DNA of 14,086 nucleotides from a virus (lineage: Duplodnaviria > Heunggongvirae > Uroviricota > Caudoviricetes), in IMG/VR virus record IMGVR_UViG_2531839468_000012. One strand, 5' to 3'. Of the stretch, positions 1 to 14,086 are shown piece after piece. The position numbers were made by a program, and so were the translations under genes. Within the stretch, counting starts at the first letter, position 1, and each line of letters begins with the position of its first letter. Under the pieces are notes generated by a model that searched no databases, was not told the origin of the DNA, and saw only the letters and a program-made list of their open reading frames with translations.

Positions 1-1
1 A

Positions 2-778
2 GTGATCCGTCGTGCTGGTGGCGTGGAATGTCTTGAAAGCTGGTTACTTCGTGAAAAAGGCTGCCAGTGGCCTCATTCCGACTGGCACAGCGAGAACATG
101 ACCACAATGCGACACGCGCCGGGCGCAATCCGTCTGTGCTGGCACTGCGATAATCAGTTACGTGATCAGTTCACGGAGCGGCTGGAATCAATGGCAACGG
201 ATAACTGTGCCCATTGGGTGTTGTCTGTAGTCCGTCGGGATCTCGATTTTAATGATAACCATGCCGTGACAATGCCGGAACTGTGCTGGTGGCTGGTTCG
301 TAATGACCTGGCGGATGCCTTACCGGAAAGCGCAGCCCGTAAGGCACTGAGATTACCGAAGTCTGTTTTGCCGTCTGTCACCCGGGAAAGTGACCTTGTG
401 CCTTCGGTTCCTGCCACCAGCATTATCCAGGATAAAGCGAAAAAGGTGCTGGCGCTGAAAGTGGATCCGGAGTCGCCGGAGTCTTTTATGTTACGCCCCA
501 AACGTCGTCGCTGGGTTAATGAACAGTACACGCGCTGGGTTAAGACGCAGCCGTGTGCATGTTGTGGAAAGCCAGCTGATGATCCGCATCATCTGATAGG
601 CCATGGTCAGGGTGGAATGGGTACAAAAGCGCATGACCTTTTTGTGCTGCCTTTGTGCAGAAAACACCACGACGAACTGCATGCGGATACCGTGGCATTT
701 GAAGAGAAGTATGGCTCCCAGCTGGAGCTGATATTTCGTTTTATCGATCGCGCACTGGCGATTGGTGTGCTGGCCTGA
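2..778 (+). CDS. DUF968-family phage protein (YdfU-like), 5' partial at window edge, with C-terminal Cys/His-rich HNH-like motif
   Basis: ORF is open to the window start and ends at TGA 776-778. C-terminus carries CACCGK...HHLIGHG...CRKHHDELH, a zinc-finger/HNH-like spacing. It lies directly upstream of Q, as ydfU does relative to the Q homologue in Qin-type prophages (from memory). Confidence 0.55.
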
Positions 779-795
779 TTTTGTGGAGAAAGTTA

Positions 796-1179
796 ATGCG
801 TGATATTCAGATGGTTCTTGAACGTTGGGGAGCGTGGGCGGCTAATAATCATGAAGATGTGACCTGGTCGTCCATTGCCGCCGGTTTTAAGGGATTAATT
901 CCTTCAAAAGTAAAATCTCGCCCGCAATGTTGTGACGATGACGCGATGATCATTTGCGGGTGCATGGCCCGTCTGAAAAAGAACAACAGCGATTTGCACG
1001 ATTTATTAGTAGATTATTATGTAGTCGGTATGACATTCATGTCACTGGCAGGTAAGCATTGCTGCTCTGATGGTTATATCGGGAAAAGGTTACAGAAGGC
1101 TGAGGGCATAATTGAAGGGATGTTAATGGCATTAGATATCCGGTTAGAGATGGATATCGTTGTTAATAACTCTAATTAA
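796..1179 (+). CDS. Q: Late-gene antiterminator Q, phage 82 / DLP12 QuuD type (127 aa)
   Basis: ATG at 796 with GGAG 7-8 nt upstream; the ORF-track start at 781 is TTG and less likely. Protein begins [24 protein letters not shown] and ends [11 protein letters not shown], which matches my recollection of DLP12 QuuD. Position is the one expected for Q: after the nin-type region and before the lysis genes. Confidence 0.8.
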
Positions 1180-1212
1180 TATGCCAATTGTTTACTGAAA
1201 GTTATTAAAAAT

Positions 1213-1230
1213 GGGGCGTTGCAACGCCCC
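1213..1230 (-). terminator. Perfect 18-bp palindrome GGGGCGTTGCAACGCCCC; intrinsic-terminator candidate for minus-strand (porin) transcripts
   Basis: Perfect inverted repeat. On the minus strand it is followed by ATTTTTAATAAC (T-rich). On the plus strand it is followed by CAAAAATAAA, so it is not a good plus-strand terminator. Confidence 0.4.
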
Positions 1231-1296
1231 CAAAAATAAAGGGTAATATATAACAGAAGGTTTATATAGTTAGAAGCAAGGTTGTGCTCCTAAAGG

Positions 1297-1318
1297 AAGT
1301 GGCTTGAGGGAGCCACTT
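1297..1318. other. Stem-loop AAGTGGCT-tgaggg-AGCCACTT (8-bp stem) between the convergent Q and porin genes
   Basis: Perfect 8-bp inverted repeat with a 6-nt loop. No adjacent U-tract on either strand, so function is unclear. Confidence 0.3.
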
Positions 1319-1320
1319 AT

Positions 1321-1358
1321 ATGTTGGGGAGGCAACGCCTCCCGCAACATATCTTTTT
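1321..1358 (+). terminator. Hairpin plus T-run; candidate tR'-like terminator of the short late leader RNA, or a bidirectional terminator
   Basis: ATGTTG-GGGAGGC-aac-GCCTCCC-g-CAACAT forms a long GC-rich stem (1321-1350) followed by ATCTTTTTCG on the plus strand. It lies about 140-180 bp downstream of the Q stop, where lambdoid phages place pR' and tR'. Confidence 0.35.
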
Positions 1359-1368
1359 CGTAATCAGA

Positions 1369-2466
1369 TTAGAACTGGTAAACCAGACCTACAGCAACGA
1401 TGTCATCAGTGCTTACACCGAGTGCTTTAGTGAAGTCATTTTTGTCAAGCAGGTTGATTTTGTAATCAACGAAAGTAGACATATTTTTGTTGAAGTAATA
1501 GGTTGCACCTACATCAACATATTTGACTAAGTCCTGATCGCCCCATACTCCAAGATCCTTACCTTTAGATTGCAGGTAAGCAACGGACGGACGCAGACCG
1601 AAATCGAACTGATATTGTGCAACAGCTTCGAAGTTTTGAGCTTTATTAGCAACGAAGTGATCAGCAAATACAGTCATATTCTGGGTTTCAGAATAGGTAG
1701 TGGCCAGGTAAATGTTGTTAGCGTCATATTTCAGACCTGCGGCCCAAACTTCTGCATTTTTACCGGAAGCAAATACTTCAGGAAGAACTTTCCCTGCATT
1801 AACTTGAGTGTCGGTACGATCAGATTTCGCATAAGTTGCACCGATACCGAATCCTTCGTATTCATAGGTAGCAGAGAAACCGAAGCCATCACCGTTACCT
1901 TCGGTGTAGTTATCGAAATCGCTACGATCGTTTTTGCCTTGGTACTGAGCAGCAAAGTTCAGACCATCAACCAGACCAAAGAAGTCGTTGTTACGATAGG
2001 TTGCAACACCAGTGGTGCGACCAGTCATGAACACATCTGTTTGGGTCCAGGTATCGCCACCGAATTCTGGCAGAACGTCAGTCCACGCACCGATGTCGTA
2101 TGCTACACCGTAGTTACGGCCGTAATCGATTGAGCCGTAGTCACCGAATTTCAGGCCTGCAAATGCAAGACGGGTTTTGTCTTTGGAGGAACCTTGAGAT
2201 TCAGCGCGGTTGCCTTTGAATTCATATTCCCACTGACCGAAACCAGTCAGCTGATCGTTGATTTGGGTTTCGCCTTTGAAGCCCAGACGAACATAAGTAG
2301 TATCACCATCATCTGCATCGTTAGAGGAAAAGTAGTGCTTGGCATTAACTTTCCCGTACAGATCCAGCTTGTTACTGTCTTTATTATAAATTTCAGCTGC
2401 CTGAGCAGACATCGCCATCAGTACTGATGCAGCTACAGCAGAAATTGCCACTGTTAATTTTTTCAT
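1369..2466 (-). CDS. nmpC: Outer-membrane general porin, phage-encoded NmpC/Lc (OmpC/OmpF family), 365 aa
   Basis: Signal peptide [23 protein letters not shown] followed by AEIYNKD. Mature protein has OmpC-like beta-barrel sequence (e.g. [28 protein letters not shown]) and the C-terminal VGLVYQF ending in Phe. ATG at 2464-2466 (complement) and TAA at 1369-1371 (complement). It sits between Q and the holin on the opposite strand, as lc does in phage PA-2 and nmpC in DLP12. Confidence 0.85.
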
Positions 2467-3010
2467 CGTGAGCCCTTTTTTTTGAACTATTATTAAAAAA
2501 TAGATGTCACTGCGCGATAAATATTCATCTAATCAATGTGATTATTTCAAGATGTAAGTTTTAGTTTCTCATTTAATTTGTGAAGTAGATCTCTATTTTT
2601 ATCTGAACTTTTTCTATCGAAACCTATTTATGGCTCTTATTTGAACAAAAATAAACCTATTAGCTAATTTATATTAATGGCTGTTATTTATGGTGGTTCT
2701 ATAATTCGTCTGTTTAATTTAAACCAGCTAAAAATAACACTGGAAATTATTTATTGTTTATTTGTTGAAGTTTTCTTATGTATTTGTGGTGATGTTTTGA
2801 ACACTCGGTAGCATTCTCATAAATATCATTCAGTGGTTTACGTACGTAAAAAATTGGTTATGCTGTTAAGAGTGGTTACTTCGTCACACAGCTTAAACCC
2901 GCCGTCGAGCTGGTTTTTCCATTTTTTGAGTCTCGATATTAGCTGATAACTCAATACCTGAGTTATTCACTGACTCGGAGTCAGTTACGTTTCTGCTTTT
3001 TTGCGATACG
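2467..3010. promoter_or_regulatory. AT-rich 544-bp intergenic region: porin promoter/regulatory region (minus strand) and 5' leader of the lysis genes (plus strand)
   Basis: No ORF of 60 aa or more, very AT-rich, directly upstream of the porin ATG. Around 2538-2570 the minus strand reads TTACATCTTGAAATAATCA, which resembles the OmpR box TTTACATTTTGAAACATCTA. A weak hairpin plus T-run lies at 2968-3003 on the plus strand. Confidence 0.4.
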
Positions 3011-3057
3011 TTGTATTCCCTCAATTTACACCCGCTTTGTCTGCGAGGTGGGGTTAT

Positions 3058-3271
3058 GAAATTCATGGATAAGTTAACAACTGGAGTCGCCTATGGCACC
3101 TCAGCAGGTAGTGCCGGTTACTGGTTTTTACAGCTGCTCGATAAAGTCACTCCCTCACAGTGGGCAGCAATAGGTGTGCTGGGTAGCCTGGTATTTGGCC
3201 TGCTGACGTACCTGACAAACCTTTATTTCAAGATTAAAGAAGATAAGCGCAAGGCTGCGAGAGGTGAATAA
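3058..3271 (+). CDS. S: Class II pinholin, phage 21 S type, 71 aa, with dual-start motif (antiholin start 3058, holin start 3067)
   Basis: [26 protein letters not shown]... resembles S21 (from memory). Two in-frame ATGs are separated by Lys-Phe (M-K-F-M). GAGGTGGGG Shine-Dalgarno at 3045-3053. Two hydrophobic segments and a charged C-terminus [13 protein letters not shown]. Stop TAA overlaps the next ATG (TAATG). Confidence 0.8.
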
Positions 3272-3768
3272 TGCCTCCATCATTACGAAAAGCCGTTGCT
3301 GCTGCTATTGGTGGCGGAGCAATTGCTATAGCATCAGTGTTAATCACTGGCCCAAGTGGTAACGATGGTCTGGAAGGTGTCAGCTACATACCATACAAAG
3401 ATATTGTTGGTGTATGGACTGTATGTCACGGACACACCGGAAAAGACATCATGCTCGGTAAAACGTATACCAAAGCAGAATGCAAAGCACTCTTGAATAA
3501 AGACCTTGCCACTGTCGCCAGACAAATTAACCCGTATATCAAAGTCGATATACCGGAAACAACGCGCGGCGCTCTTTACTCATTCGTTTACAACGTGGGT
3601 GCTGGCAATTTTAGAACATCGACGCTTCTTCGCAAAATAAACCAGGGCGATATCAAAGGCGCATGTGATCAGCTGCGTCGCTGGACATACGCTGGCGGTA
3701 AGCAATGGAAAGGCCTGATGACTCGTCGTGAGATTGAGCGTGAAGTCTGTTTGTGGGGGCAACAGTGA
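3271..3768 (+). CDS. R: SAR endolysin (signal-anchor-release lysozyme, T4-lysozyme-like GH24), phage 21 R type, 165 aa
   Basis: N-terminal Gly/Ala-rich weak transmembrane segment [20 protein letters not shown], typical of a SAR domain. Glu-Asp-Thr catalytic spacing in [17 protein letters not shown]. Start is translationally coupled to the holin stop. Confidence 0.85.
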
Positions 3769-4226
3769 GCAGAGTAACCGCGATTATATCCGCTCTGATT
3801 ATCTGCATCATCGTCAGCCTGTCATGGGCGGTCAATCATTACCGTGATAACGCAATCGCCTACAAAGTCCAGCGCGACAAAAATGCCAGAGAACTGAAGC
3901 TAGCGAACGCGGCAATTACTGACATGCAGATGCGTCAGCGTGATGTTGCTGCGCTCGATGCAAAATACACGAAGGAGTTAGCTGATGCGAAAGCTGAAAA
4001 TGATGCTCTGCGTGATGATGTTGCCGCTGGTCGTCGTCGGTTGCACATCAAAGCAGTCTGTCAGTCAGTGCGTGAAGCCACCACGGCCTCCGGCGTGGAT
4101 AATGCAGCCTCCCCCCGACTGGCAGACACCGCTGAACGGGATTATTTCACCCTCAGAGAGAGGCTGATCACTATGCAAAAACAACTGGAAGGAACCCAGA
4201 AGTATATTAATGAGCAGTGCAGATAG
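3765..4226 (+). CDS. Rz: Rz i-spanin (inner-membrane spanin subunit), lambda type, 153 aa
   Basis: GTG at 3765 gives [29 protein letters not shown]..., an N-terminal transmembrane helix followed by a coiled-coil periplasmic domain. It overlaps the endolysin stop (GTGA). GGGGG lies 7 nt upstream. An alternative GTG at 3753 would add 4 aa. Confidence 0.85.
3985..4167 (+). CDS. Rz1: Rz1 o-spanin lipoprotein, 60 aa, embedded in the +1 frame of Rz
   Basis: [24 protein letters not shown]... has a lipobox (VVGC) and a proline-rich mature region [15 protein letters not shown]. It is fully nested inside Rz in a different frame, the classic lambda arrangement. Confidence 0.8.
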
Positions 4227-4257
4227 AGCTGACCATATCGATGGGCAACTCATGCAA

Positions 4258-4551
4258 TTATTTTGAGCAATACACACGCGCTTCCAGCGGAGTATAAATG
4301 CCTAAAGTAATAAAACCGAGCAATCCATTTACGAATGTTTGCTGGGTTTCTGTTTTAACAACATTTTCTGCGCCGCCACAAATTTTAGCTGCATCGACAG
4401 TTTTCTTCTGCCCAATTCCAGAAACGAAGAAATGATGGGTGATGGTTTCCTTTGGTGCTACTGCTGTCTGTTTGTTTTGAACAGTAAATGTCTGTTGAGC
4501 ACATCCTGTAATAAGCAGGGCCAGCGCAGTAGCGAGTAGCATTTTTTTCAT
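4258..4551 (-). CDS. bor: Bor lipoprotein (serum-resistance, Iss-like lysogenic-conversion protein), 97 aa
   Basis: MKKMLLATALALLITGCAQQ... has a signal peptide with lipobox LITGC. Length and position (32 bp after Rz, opposite strand) match lambda bor. Confidence 0.85.
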   Translation of the reverse strand: MKKMLLATALALLITGCAQQTFTVQNKQTAVAPKETITHHFFVSGIGQKKTVDAAKICGGAENVVKTETQQTFVNGLLGFITLGIYTPLEARVYCSK

Positions 4552-4841
4552 GGTGTTATTCCCGATGCTTTTTGAAGTTCGCAGAATCGTATGTGTAGAA
4601 AATTAAACAAACCCTAAACAATGAGTTGAAATTTCATATTGTTAATATTTATTAATGTATGCCAGGTGCGATGAATCGTCATTGTATTCCCGGATTAACT
4701 ATGTCCACAGCCCTGACGGGGAACTTCTCTGCGGGAGTGTCCGGGAATAATTAAAAACGATGCACACAGGGTTTAGCGCGTACATGCATTGTATTATGCC
4801 AACACCCCGGTGCTGACACGGAAGAAACCGGACGTTATGAT

Positions 4842-5375
4842 TTAGCGTGGAAAGATTTGTGTAGTGTTCTGAATGCTCTCAGTAAATAGTAATGAATTAT
4901 CAAAGGTATAGTAATATCTTTTATGTTCGTGGATATTTGTAATCCATCGGAAAACTCCTGCTTTAGCAAGATTTTCCCTGTATTGCTGAAATGTGATTTC
5001 TCTTGATTTCAACCTATCATAGGACGTTTCTATAAGATGCGTATTTCTTGAGAATTTAACATTTACAACCTTTTTAAGTCCTTTTATTAACACGGTGTTA
5101 TCGTTTTCTAACACAATGTGAATATTATCTGTGGCTAGATAGTAAATATAATGTGAGACATTGTGACGTTTTAGTTCAGAATAAAACAATTCACAGTTTA
5201 AATCTTTTCGCACTTGATCGAATATTTCTTTAAAAATGGCAACCTGAGCCATTGGTAAAACCTTCCATGTGATACGAGGGCGCGTAGTTTGCATTATCGT
5301 TTTTATCGCTTCAATCTGGTCTGACCTCTTTGTGTTTTGTTGATGATTTATGTCAAATATTAGGAATGTTTTCAA
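4842..5375 (-). CDS. Hypothetical protein, 177 aa, AT-rich; corresponds to the lambda right-arm ORF between bor and cos (possibly YbcV/DUF1398-like 'putative envelope protein')
   Basis: Long ORF in a very AT-rich segment with no recognisable catalytic motif. Collinear with the lambda region downstream of bor. The family assignment is from memory and tentative. Confidence 0.45.
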
Positions 5376-5537
5376 TTAATAGTATTGGTTGCGTAACAAA
5401 GTGCGGTCCTGCTGGCATTCTGGAGGGAAATACAACCGACAGATGTATGTAAGGCCAACGTGCTCAAACCTTCATACAGAAAGATTTGAAGTAATATTTT
5501 AACCGCTAGATGAAGAGCAAGCGCATGGAGCGACAAA

Positions 5538-5744
5538 ATGAATAAAGAACAATCTGCTGATGATCCCTCCGTGGATCTGATTCGTGTAAAAAATATGCTT
5601 AATAGCACCATTTCTATGAGTTACCCTGATGTTGTAATTGCATGTATAGAACATAAGGTGTCTCTGGAAGCATTCAGGGCAATTGAGGCAGCGTTGGTGA
5701 AGCACGATAATAATATGAAGGATTATTCCCTGGTGGTTGACTGA
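5538..5744 (+). CDS. Small acidic hypothetical protein, 68 aa (YbcW-like)
   Basis: ATG at 5538 preceded by GGAGCGACAAA. Followed by an 8-bp-stem hairpin GTGACAGA...TCTGTCAC at about 5780-5812. Divergent from the 177-aa ORF. Size and position match DLP12 ybcW (from memory). Confidence 0.4.
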
Positions 5745-5908
5745 TCACCATAACTGCTAATCATTCAAACTACTTAACCTGTGACAGAGCCAACACGCAG
5801 TCTGTCACTGTCAGGAAAGTGGTAAAACTGCAACTCAATTACTGCAATGCCCTCGTAATTAAGTGAATTTACAATATCGTCCTGTTCGGAGGGAAGAACG
5901 CGGGATGT

Positions 5909-6103
5909 TCATTCTTCATCACTTTTAATTGATGTATATGCTCTCTTTTCTGACGTTAGCCTCCGACGGCAGGCTTCAATGACCCAGGCTGAGAAATTCC
6001 CGGACCCTTTTTGCTCAAGAGCGATGTTAATTTGTTCAATCATTTGGTTAGGAAAGCGGATGTTGCGGGTTGTTGTTCTGCGGGTTCTGTTCTTAGTTGA
6101 CAT
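5909..6103 (-). CDS. Small basic protein with ribbon-helix-helix-like pattern, 64 aa (YlcI/DUF3950-like), possible DNA-binding regulator
   Basis: MSTKNRTRRTTTRNIRFPNQMIEQINIALEQKGSGNFSAWVIEACRRRL: basic N-terminus, then a short beta-strand (RNIRFP), helix (QMIEQINIALEQ), turn and helix (FSAWVIEACRRRL), consistent with a CopG/Arc-type fold. Confidence 0.45.
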   Translation of the reverse strand: MSTKNRTRRTTTRNIRFPNQMIEQINIALEQKGSGNFSAWVIEACRRRLTSEKRAYTSIKSDEE

Positions 6104-6302
6104 GAGGTTGCCCCGTATTCAGTGTCGCTGATTTGTATTGTCTGAAGTTGTTTTTACGTTAAGTTGATGCAGATCAATTAATACGATACCTGCGTCATAA
6201 TTGATTATTTGACGTGGTTTGATGGCGTAGATGCACGTTGTGACATGTAGATGATAATTATTATCATTTTGTGGGTCCTTTCCGGCGATCCGACAGGTTA
6301 CG

Positions 6303-7011: not shown

Positions 7012-7037
<26 letters not shown>
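6492..7037 (+). CDS. Nu1: Terminase small subunit gpNu1, 181 aa
   Basis: MEVNKKQLADIFGASIRTIQNWQEQGMPVLRGGGKGNEVLYD... has an N-terminal winged-HTH DNA-binding motif and matches lambda Nu1 in length. The 3' end overlaps the A start. Confidence 0.9.
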
Positions 7038-10719
<3,682 letters not shown>

Positions 10720-10739
<20 letters not shown>

Positions 10740-12039
10740 TCTCCCGCATATTGCCAGCATGGCTTTTAATGAGCCGCTGATGCTTGAACCCGCCTATGCG
10801 CGGGTTTTCTTTTGTGCGCTTGCAGGCCAGCTTGGGATCAGTCGCCTGACGGATGCAGTATCCGGCGACAGCCTGACTGCCGGAGAGGCACCCGCGGCGC
10901 TGGCGTTATCCGGTGATGATGACGGACCACGACAGGCCCGCAGTTATCAGGTCATGAACGGCATCGCCGTGCTGCCGGTGTCCGGTACGCTGGTCAGCCG
11001 GACGCGGGCGCTGCAGCCGTATTCGGGAATGACCGGTTACAACGGCATTATCGCCCGTCTGCAACAGGCTGCCAGCGATCCGATGGTGGACGGCATTCTG
11101 CTCGATATGGACACACCGGGCGGGATGGTGGCGGGAGCATTTGACTGTGCTGACATCATCGCCCGTGTGCGTGACATAAAGCCGGTATGGGCGCTGGCCA
11201 ACGACATGAACTGCAGTGCAGGTCAGCTGCTTGCCAGCGCCGCCTCCCGGCGTCTGGTCACGCAGACCGCCCGGACAGGCTCCATCGGCGTCATGATGGC
11301 TCACAGTAATTACGGCGCTGCGCTGGAGAAACAGGGCGTGGAAATCACGCTGATTTACAGCGGCAGCCATAAGGTGGATGGCAACCCCTACAGCCATCTA
11401 CCGGGTGATGTCCGGGAGACACTGCAGTCCCGGATGGATGCAACCCGCCGGATGTTTGCGCAGAAGGTGTCGGCATATACCGGCCTGTCCGTGCAGGCTG
11501 TGCTGGATACCGAGGCTGCAGTGTATAGCGGTCAGGAGGCCATTGATGCCGGACTGGCTGATGAACTTGTCAACAGCACCGATGCGATCACCGTTATGCG
11601 TGATGCACTGGATGCACGTAAATCCCGTCTCTCAGGAGGGCGAATGACCAAAGAGACTCAATCAACAACTGTTTCAGCCACTGCTTCGCAGGCTGACGTT
11701 ACTGACGTGGTGCAAGCGACGGAGGGCGAAAACGCCAGCGCGGCGCAGCCGGACGTGAACGCGCAGATCACCGCTGCGGTTGCGGCAGAAAACAGCCGCA
11801 TTATGGGGATCCTCAACTGTGAGGAAGCTCACGGACGCGAAGAACAGGCACGTGTGCTGGCCGAAACCCCCGGTATGACCGTGGAAACGGCCCGCCGCAT
11901 TCTGGCAGCTGCACCACAGAGTGCACAGGCGCGCAGTGACACTGCGCTGGATCGTCTGATGCAGGGGGCACCGGCACCACTGGCTGCAGGTAACCCGGCA
12001 TCTGATGCCGTTAACGATTTGCTGAACACACCAGTGTAA
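10720..12039 (+). CDS. C: Head maturation protease / minor capsid protein gpC (ClpP/SppA-like S49 fold), 439 aa, GTG start
   Basis: GTG at 10720 gives MTAELRNLPHIASMAFNEPLMLEP..., a 20-nt overlap with the B 3' end as in lambda. The ORF-track start at 10585 is an upstream in-frame extension that overlaps B. Confidence 0.85.
11434..12039 (+). CDS. Nu3: Scaffolding protein gpNu3, in-frame internal start within C (shares the C-terminal 201 codons)
   Basis: In-frame ATG at 11434 (MDATRRMFAQKVSAY...), 714 nt into C, the same offset as lambda Nu3 relative to C (from memory). Confidence 0.6.
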   Translation: MDATRRMFAQKVSAYTGLSVQAVLDTEAAVYSGQEAIDAGLADELVNSTDAITVMRDALDARKSRLSGGRMTKETQSTTVSATASQADVTDVVQATEGENASAAQPDVNAQITAAVAAENSRIMGILNCEEAHGREEQARVLAETPGMTVETARRILAAAPQSAQARSDTALDRLMQGAPAPLAAGNPASDAVNDLLNTPV

Positions 12040-12048
12040 GGGATGTTT

Positions 12049-12381
12049 ATGACGAGCAAAGAAACCTTTACCCATTACCAGCCGCTGGGCAACAGTGACC
12101 CGGCACATACGGCAACCGCGCCCGGCGGATTGAGTGCGAAAGCGCCTGCAATGACCCCGCTGATGCTGGACACCTCCACCCGTAAGCTGGTTGCGTGGGA
12201 TGGCACCACCGACGGTACTGCCGTTGGCATTCTGGCGGTTGATGCTGACCAGACCAGCACCACGCTGACGTTCTACAAGTCCGGCACGTTCCGTTATGAG
12301 GATGTGCTCTGGCCGGAGGCTGCCAGCGACGAGACGAAAAAACGGACCGCGTTTGCCGGAACGGCAATCAGCATCGTTTAA
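12049..12381 (+). CDS. D: Head decoration protein gpD, 110 aa
   Basis: [27 protein letters not shown]...[12 protein letters not shown] at 12049 is 10 nt after the C/Nu3 stop, as in lambda. The ORF-track start at 12043 adds MF. Confidence 0.85.
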
Positions 12382-12400
12382 CCTTACCCTTCATCACTAA

Positions 12401-12424
12401 AGGCCGCCTGTGCGGCTTTTTTTA
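12401..12424 (+). terminator. Intrinsic-terminator-like hairpin between D and E
   Basis: AGGCCGC-ctgt-GCGGCT stem followed by TTTTTTT, immediately before the E start at 12437. Confidence 0.4.
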
Positions 12425-12436
12425 CGGGATTTTTTT

Positions 12437-13461
12437 ATGTCGATGTACACAACCGCCCAGCTGCTGGCGGCAAATGAGCAGAAATTTAAGTTTGATCCGC
12501 TGTTTCTGCGTCTCTTTTTCCGTGAGAGCTATCCCTTCACCACGGAGAAAGTCTATCTCTCACAAATTCCGGGACTGGTAAACATGGCGCTGTACGTTTC
12601 GCCGATTGTTTCCGGTGAGGTTATCCGTTCCCGTGGCGGCTCCACCTCTGAATTTACGCCGGGATATGTCAAACCCAAGCATGAGGTGAATCCGCAGATG
12701 ACCCTGCGTCGCCTGCCGGATGAAGATCCGCAGAATCTGGCGGACCCGGCTTACCGCCGCCGTCGCATCATCATGCAGAACATGCGAGACGAAGAGCTGG
12801 CCATTGCTCAGGTCGAAGAGATGCAGGCAGTTTCTGCTGTGCTTAAGGGCAAATACACCATGACCGGTGAAGCCTTCGATCCGGTTGAGGTGGATATGGG
12901 CCGCAGTGCGGCGAACAACATCACACAGTCCGGTGGTACGGAGTGGAGCAAGCGTGACAAGTCCACGTATGACCCGACCGACGATATCGAAGCCTATGCG
13001 CTGAACGCCAGCGGCGTGGTGAATATCATCGTGTTTGATCCGAAAGGCTGGGCGCTGTTCCGTTCCTTCAAAGCCGTCAAGGAGAAGCTGGATACCCGTC
13101 GCGGCTCTCATTCCGAGCTGGAGACAGCGGTAAAAGACCTGGGCGAAGCGGTGTCCTATAAGGGGATGTATGGCGATACGGCGATCGTCGTGTATTCCGG
13201 ACAGTACGTGGAAAACGACGTCAAAAAGAACTTCCTGCCGGACAACACGATGGTGCTGGGGAACACTCAGGCACGCGGTCTGCGCACCTATGGCTGCATT
13301 CAGGATGCGGACGCACAGCGCGAAGGTATTAACGCCTCTGCCCGCTCCCGAAAAACTGGGTGACCACCGGCGATCCGGCGCGTGAGTTCACCATGATTCA
13401 GTCAGCACCGCTGATGCTGCTGGCTGATCCTGATGCGTTCGTGTCCGTACAACTGGCGTAA
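12437..13461 (+). pseudogene. E: Major capsid protein gpE, disrupted near the 3' end by a -1 frameshift (1025 nt versus the 1026 expected); truncated ORF ends at 13363
   Basis: MSMYTTAQLLAANEQKFKFDPLFLRLFF... runs to ...GINASAR, then SRKTG and stop at 13361-13363. The remaining E C-terminus (PKNWVTTGDPAREFTMIQSAPLMLLADPDAFVSVQLA, stop 13459-13461) is encoded in the neighbouring frame. The frame change lies between 13343 and 13350, in CGCTCCCGAAAAA; the C-run 13347-13349 appears one C short. Confidence 0.75.
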
Positions 13462-13463
13462 TC

Positions 13464-13490
13464 ATGGCCCTTCGGGGCCATTTTCTCTCT
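13464..13490 (+). terminator. Stem-loop ATGGCCC-ttcg-GGGCCAT followed by a U-rich tract, between E and FI
   Basis: Perfect 7-bp GC-rich stem with a TTCG tetraloop, followed by TTTTCTCTCT, 3 nt after the E stop and about 12 nt before the FI Shine-Dalgarno (GGAGG, 13494-13498). Confidence 0.4.
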
Positions 13491-13502
13491 GTGGAGGAGT
13501 CC

Positions 13503-14086
<584 letters not shown>

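Follow-up and report, generated by a model that had tools for sequence, protein, structure and literature searches.

In this study we analyse a stretch of DNA of 14,086 nucleotides, in the following called the window. An exact-protein look-up identified it as contig AFDT01000020.1 in its full length (14,086 bp), belonging to assembly GCA_000225085.2, a draft genome of the porcine enterotoxigenic Escherichia coli (ETEC) strain 3030-2. From its sequence the window can be recognized as a DLP12/lambda-type prophage that is already broken. Its positions 1-6300 show one difference to an annotated region of E. coli A1 and contain the DLP12 gene set in order, the A1 region bearing quuD, the porin gene, essD, rrrD, rzpD, bor, ybcV, ybcW, ylcI and nohD. 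The porin gene (nmpC-type, 365 aa, window 1369-2466 on the minus strand) is intact; the porin copy in DLP12 of K-12 is interrupted by IS5. On the 3' side of this left arm follow the lambda-type head genes Nu1, A, W, B, C/Nu3, D, E and FI. The capsid gene E sits between the decoration gene D and FI, as indicated by the Pfam domains HDPD, Phage_cap_E and Packaging_FI in this order, and the annotated relatives agree. An IS3-family element cuts FI at 13810/13811 and the contig stops 276 bp into this element; both ends of the contig fall in repeats. The features on which our analysis is based are the following:

7012..8184, plus strand: 5' fragment of the terminase large-subunit gene A, 390 aa, with Pfam GpA_ATPase and the start of GpA_nuclease
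8189..8938, plus strand: 3' fragment of gene A, 249 aa, with the remaining nuclease domain (Pfam)
12437..13363, plus strand: gene E as written, with 303 native codons followed by 5 out of frame (SRKTG) and the stop TGA (ORF; Pfam PF03864)
13346..13347, plus strand: site of the missing base, T-A-C (TAC, Tyr304) in relatives vs T-C in the window (alignments)
13348..13461, plus strand: native 3' end of E (Pro305-Ala341 and TAA), out of frame (translation; E. coli matches of 99.9% identity)
13351..13355, plus strand: A5 run 4 nt downstream of the gap, speculatively the only place for a frame-regaining -1 slip of tRNA-Lys (sequence)
13503..13826, plus strand: FI truncated by the IS, 107 aa vs 131 (Pfam; the intact FI of two compared loci, L004 and L005, is a CDS of 396 nt)
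13811..14086, plus strand: left end of the IS3-family element (1258 bp in the relative E. coli A1), with the target duplication TGT at 13808-13810

The ORF of gene E starts with ATG 12437 and stops at TGA 13361-13363. Its product as written is a protein of 308 aa ending in ...GINASARSRKTG*, in which 303 native residues are followed by 5 foreign ones. The native C-terminus PKNWVTTGDPAREFTMIQSAPLMLLADPDAFVSVQLA* is encoded in the frame beginning at 13348 and ends with TAA 13459-13461; exactly 38 native residues (304-341) are lost. The whole span of E, 12437..13461, measures 1025 nt as compared to 1026 nt in the relatives. The gene was matched over 80% or more of the query length in 3,166 E. coli records and in all 86 phage records with E; in both sets each match listed is 1026 nt long. 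The best 40 of the 3,166 E. coli matches show 99.9% identity and differ by the gap alone, and the displaced segment 13348..13461 is, apart from its frame, the same as in intact alleles. An earlier note on this DNA had described E as truncated by a one-base deletion, with the stop at 13363, the displaced C-terminus reaching to 13461 and a length of 1025 instead of 1026 nt. The truncation and all of these coordinates proved to be correct.

The position of the lost base had to be revised. The alignment of the window with three intact E genes (phiSTEC1575-Stx2k, PhiR34_1 and one lambda isolate) leaves only the A of CGC-TAC-CCG as the missing base, the codon hit being TAC for Tyr304, and the other 111 columns of the alignment are identical across the window and the three intact genes. 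In the window the site reads CGCT^CCCG, the base being absent between 13346 and 13347; the gap form of the site is CGCTCCCG and the TAC form is CGCTACCCG. The earlier note had instead mapped the shift to the C-run at 13347-13349 and had taken four Cs, read as ...ARSPKNWV..., for the ancestral state. However, CCC at 13347-13349 consists of three Cs in the intact genes too. Hence the lost residue is Tyr304 and not a fourth C, and the restored protein reads ...ARYPKNWV.... The note had also held that an E alignment lacking the frame switch would speak against the truncation; the alignment was run and the frame switch is present.

On the protein level the restored gpE scores 746 bits against lambda gpE (PDB 7VI9) over residues 1-341, with 7 of the 341 residues differing, so that the lambda E-like identity suggested before can be accepted. 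The truncated E still matches PF03864 (Phage_cap_E) at E = 3.7e-58 with its residues 5-301, covering profile positions 1-291 of 329, while the intact E covers positions 1-328 of 329. A complete capsid domain in one frame (about 341 aa) is not found in E as written, in which positions 292-329 are absent. Since these profile positions are lost, the missing part of E belongs to the conserved capsid domain. By this comparison E as written would be classified as a pseudogene of the lambda gpE-type family (PF03864, HK97 fold), and in view of the HK97 fold it is reasonable to expect that a truncated gpE would fail to assemble.

The E gap is not the only private change in the window. We compared the window base by base with the two prophage copies of E. 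coli A1, a third genome and roughly 120 other fetched loci. Against relatives of 99.9% identity the 14-kb contig bears four private 1-nt indels vs five private substitutions, the latter being shared by none of the fetched loci:

2502, plus strand: insertion of A after A6-T (2495-2501), 36 nt upstream of the porin gene start
8163-8165, plus strand: insertion of T (TT to TTT), which splits the terminase gene A
13346/13347, plus strand: deletion of A, the gap in E
13892-13894, plus strand: deletion of A (A4 to A3) shortly after the ATG (13883) of the IS orfA
9305: substitution C to T, synonymous
10215: substitution C to T, portal R360W
11526: substitution C to T, synonymous
13658: substitution A to C, synonymous
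13804: substitution A to G, FI E101G

Three further positions (8109, 8500 and 8506) differ from the nearest copy but are polymorphisms common to other phages. The left 6.3 kb and the IS end together hold two of the indels and zero substitutions. All four indels are A/T events and two of them alter short homopolymers; three lie in or adjoin a homopolymer (A6-T+A, TT to TTT and A4 to A3), whereas the E gap does not. In the IS orfA the A3 of the window, as compared to A4 elsewhere, leads to a frameshift of the transposase after 3 codons.

We found none of the four indels in other genomes. The E gap was seen in 0 of about 2,600 complete E. coli genomes holding the stretch, the additional T at 8163-8165 in 0 of about 3,050 and the A3 at 13892-13894 in 0 of about 2,080 such genomes, and the additional A at 2502 in 0 of 2,348 genomes holding that stretch. 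For the A3 form of the IS orfA there was no full-length exact match among 4,611 matching places in complete E. coli genomes, and an 80-nt query with the E gap gave no full-length exact match in 5,426 complete E. coli genomes. Exact scans of GTDB representatives, metagenome contigs and IMG/VR returned no copy of the deleted 38-mer of E; the intact 39-mer, used as a control, was present in at least 120 IMG/VR contigs. Exact-protein look-up gave no record for the ORFs with starts at 12437 and 12410, and the called 306-aa E, the 390-aa fragment of A and the portal were recorded on AFDT01000020.1 alone. As even the portal variant is known from this contig alone, the fact that the truncated proteins are on record nowhere else has no power to separate a real mutation from an artefact.

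One inactivating lesion of an essential morphogenesis gene is independent of sequencing error, namely the insertion of the IS3-family element in FI, which has a 3-bp target duplication and a junction that recurs in an independent complete genome. The same FI::IS junction was found by BLAST in the second, Qin-type prophage of E. coli A1, with E intact there; it was absent from GTDB representatives. As the junction also occurs in E. coli A1, this lesion is real and predates the split of A1 and 3030-2. The two A1 prophages (L004 and L007) are identical over the equivalent of window 11056-13810 (2.7 kb) and have about 60 differing sites upstream. This pattern suggests that gene conversion may have taken place recently between the two prophages in one genome.

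What, then, is the origin of the E gap? On balance we lean towards the view that it is a sequencing or consensus indel of the deposited draft and not a mutation of the strain. In this case strain 3030-2 would carry an intact E of 1026 nt. Pyrosequencing-type read errors would have left single-base indels in the contig, one of them removing the A of TAC304, and low or mixed coverage in the repeated prophage region might have worsened these errors; the indels would then have arisen in base calling or consensus. In natural E. coli divergence there is roughly one indel per ten substitutions. The proportion found here, four indels vs five substitutions, is far from about 1:10, and the presence of four private indels in 14 kb makes error at least as likely as real mutation. 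Insertion of an A one base past an A6 run fits lagging extension in pyrosequencing. The additional A at 2502 is of this kind and unlike replication slippage, and thus looks technical. The A3 of the IS looks technical as well, as it lies at the contig end, where low depth is expected. Moreover E shows no secondary decay downstream of the shift, and 40 or more intact alleles match it at all other positions.

The sequencing history of related drafts is consistent with this view. A literature search for a paper on the sequencing of AFDT or 3030-2 found only a paper that uses the accession, in the form of AFDT01000052, and from which the assembly is known to be that of the porcine ETEC strain 3030-2 (PMC4358887). 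For AFDQ, AFDR, AFDU, AFDV, AFDW, AFDZ and AFEA it has been described that 454 Titanium paired-end reads only were used, with assembly by Celera 6.0, at one centre (PMC3491183). These seven accessions lie in the same accession block as AFDT, and we infer that AFDT shares the 454 Titanium and Celera history of its sister accessions. However, there are several points against an error. The E gap lies outside a homopolymer, its A being placed between T and CCC, and the loss of a single-base call is the kind of error least typical of pyrosequencing; a consensus of adequate depth should correct it; and four consensus errors in 14 kb are denser than usual for such assemblies. In addition the lineage has real private substitutions, and in a prophage that is already defective a real frameshift would cost nothing.

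It might therefore also be possible that the deletion is a genuine and recent mutation, a reading that we regard as a serious candidate, although we would not call it probable. The prophage would be defective, selection on its head genes relaxed, and the 308-aa product of the E pseudogene unable to build capsids. Since the prophage is already defective, a real frameshift in E would be neutral. In favour of this reading are the FI::IS lesion, which is real, old and common to the E. coli A1 prophage, and the private substitutions of the lineage, among them two non-synonymous ones (portal R360W and FI E101G). Broken head genes are also known from public prophages; among the full-length copies of A, B, C and E found in IMG/VR loci, 7 of 231 are broken. 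The T-A-CCC context is atypical as a site of pyrosequencing error. On the other hand, four private indels vs five substitutions are far off natural ratios, and a technical origin is suggested at the least for the A at 2502 and for the A3 at the contig end. Both A1 prophage copies retain an intact E despite the IS damage, and E of the window has acquired no further change. In the resources searched, no independent sequence of the 3030-2 prophage lineage was found that would confirm the gap. A mismatch-repair mutator lineage was considered as a source of the many indels and dropped, the contexts being short runs or non-runs and the numbers tiny.

A special case of the artefact would be that the contig is a consensus of two or more near-identical head modules and that the indels came from merging them. 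We consider this unlikely. Some features of the contig would fit such a merger: E. coli A1, the closest complete genome, has two prophages with identical head modules from about 11056 to 13810, the window has a DLP12-type left arm and SNPs in the head genes as in one A1 copy, joined to the FI::IS junction of the other, a patch of two SNPs (8500 and 8506) matches the second, Qin-type A1 copy, and both contig ends lie in repeats. However, the window tracks one A1 copy at about 60 discriminating sites and the other copy at 8500 and 8506 only. This patch is also present in other phages, hence natural recombination suffices as an explanation. Mixing copies that all have TAC, moreover, would not remove an A. 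As for the patch itself, it could have its origin in gene conversion between paralogous prophages or in natural mosaicism.

It is very improbable that the shift in E is real and yet bypassed by tRNA-Lys slipping back by one base (-1) on the A5 run, so that full-length gpE is made. The codon AAA at 13352-13354 could re-pair perfectly with AAA at 13351-13353, by which the native C-terminus would be regained, and the computed slip product is a gpE of 341 aa that differs by Y304S and P305R alone. But this arrangement is found in no relative, all of which have one continuous ORF of 1026 nt; there is no canonical X XXY YYZ heptamer in the zero frame, nor is a stimulator evident; one capsid requires about 400 gpE molecules, more than a rare slip could provide; and the packaging genes are damaged as well. 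A weaker version, in which the deletion is real and low-level slippage of tRNA-Lys gives some gpE with Y304S and P305R, we judge to be just as far-fetched; if slippage did occur, the capsid gene would be leaky and not dead. Programmed frameshifting in E was rejected, since it is not conserved and has no signal.

What does the E gap mean for the phage and for the users of this draft? The earlier note had implied a biological weight of the truncation. Its structural part stands, as a conserved domain is shortened (PF03864 positions 1-328 to 1-291), but the importance attached to it does not, as the prophage was already disabled. With the IS in FI, the frameshift in terminase A as written and four private indels in 14 kb, the biological weight of the E gap is weak. 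Error or mutation alike, the gap is a known kind of event and involves no novel mechanism. A real gap would add a further inactivating lesion to a prophage that an IS has already crippled, and would show only that this prophage is unable to make capsids. An artefact, which we tend to believe it to be, would remind us that frameshifts in drafts of the 454 era should not be taken for biology until the reads have been checked. In either case A, E and the IS orfA of AFDT01000020.1 should not be scored as pseudogenes without the reads.

In conclusion, the locus can be compared with several known systems. The closest is gene E of lambda with its product gpE (HK97 fold; PDB 7VI9 and 7SJ5; PF03864). 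The restored protein of the window also has 341 aa and differs from it in 7 residues, and the gene order Nu1-A-W-B-C/Nu3-D-E-FI is the same in lambda and in the window. In contrast to lambda gpE, the ORF of the window stops after 303 native residues, and the last 38, which belong to the conserved domain, are encoded in another frame. With the cryptic prophages DLP12 and Qin of K-12 the window shares damage mediated by IS elements, and its left arm is 99.9% identical to the region annotated from quuD to nohD. DLP12 of K-12 ends at nohD, whereas in the window the lambda-type head genes remain. As regards drafts based on 454 reads only, in which single-base indels remain, the window is similar in having several private A/T indels, three of them in or beside homopolymers, and in being a draft of the 2011 era; it differs in that the E deletion lies outside a homopolymer, and its platform is deduced from the sister accessions. 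Finally, the programmed -1 frameshift of lambda G/GT likewise affects a structural gene of lambda type in which the frame is a different one for the downstream part. However, the frameshift of G/GT is conserved and has a slippery heptamer, whereas the shift in E occurs only in AFDT01000020.1 and has no such signal.
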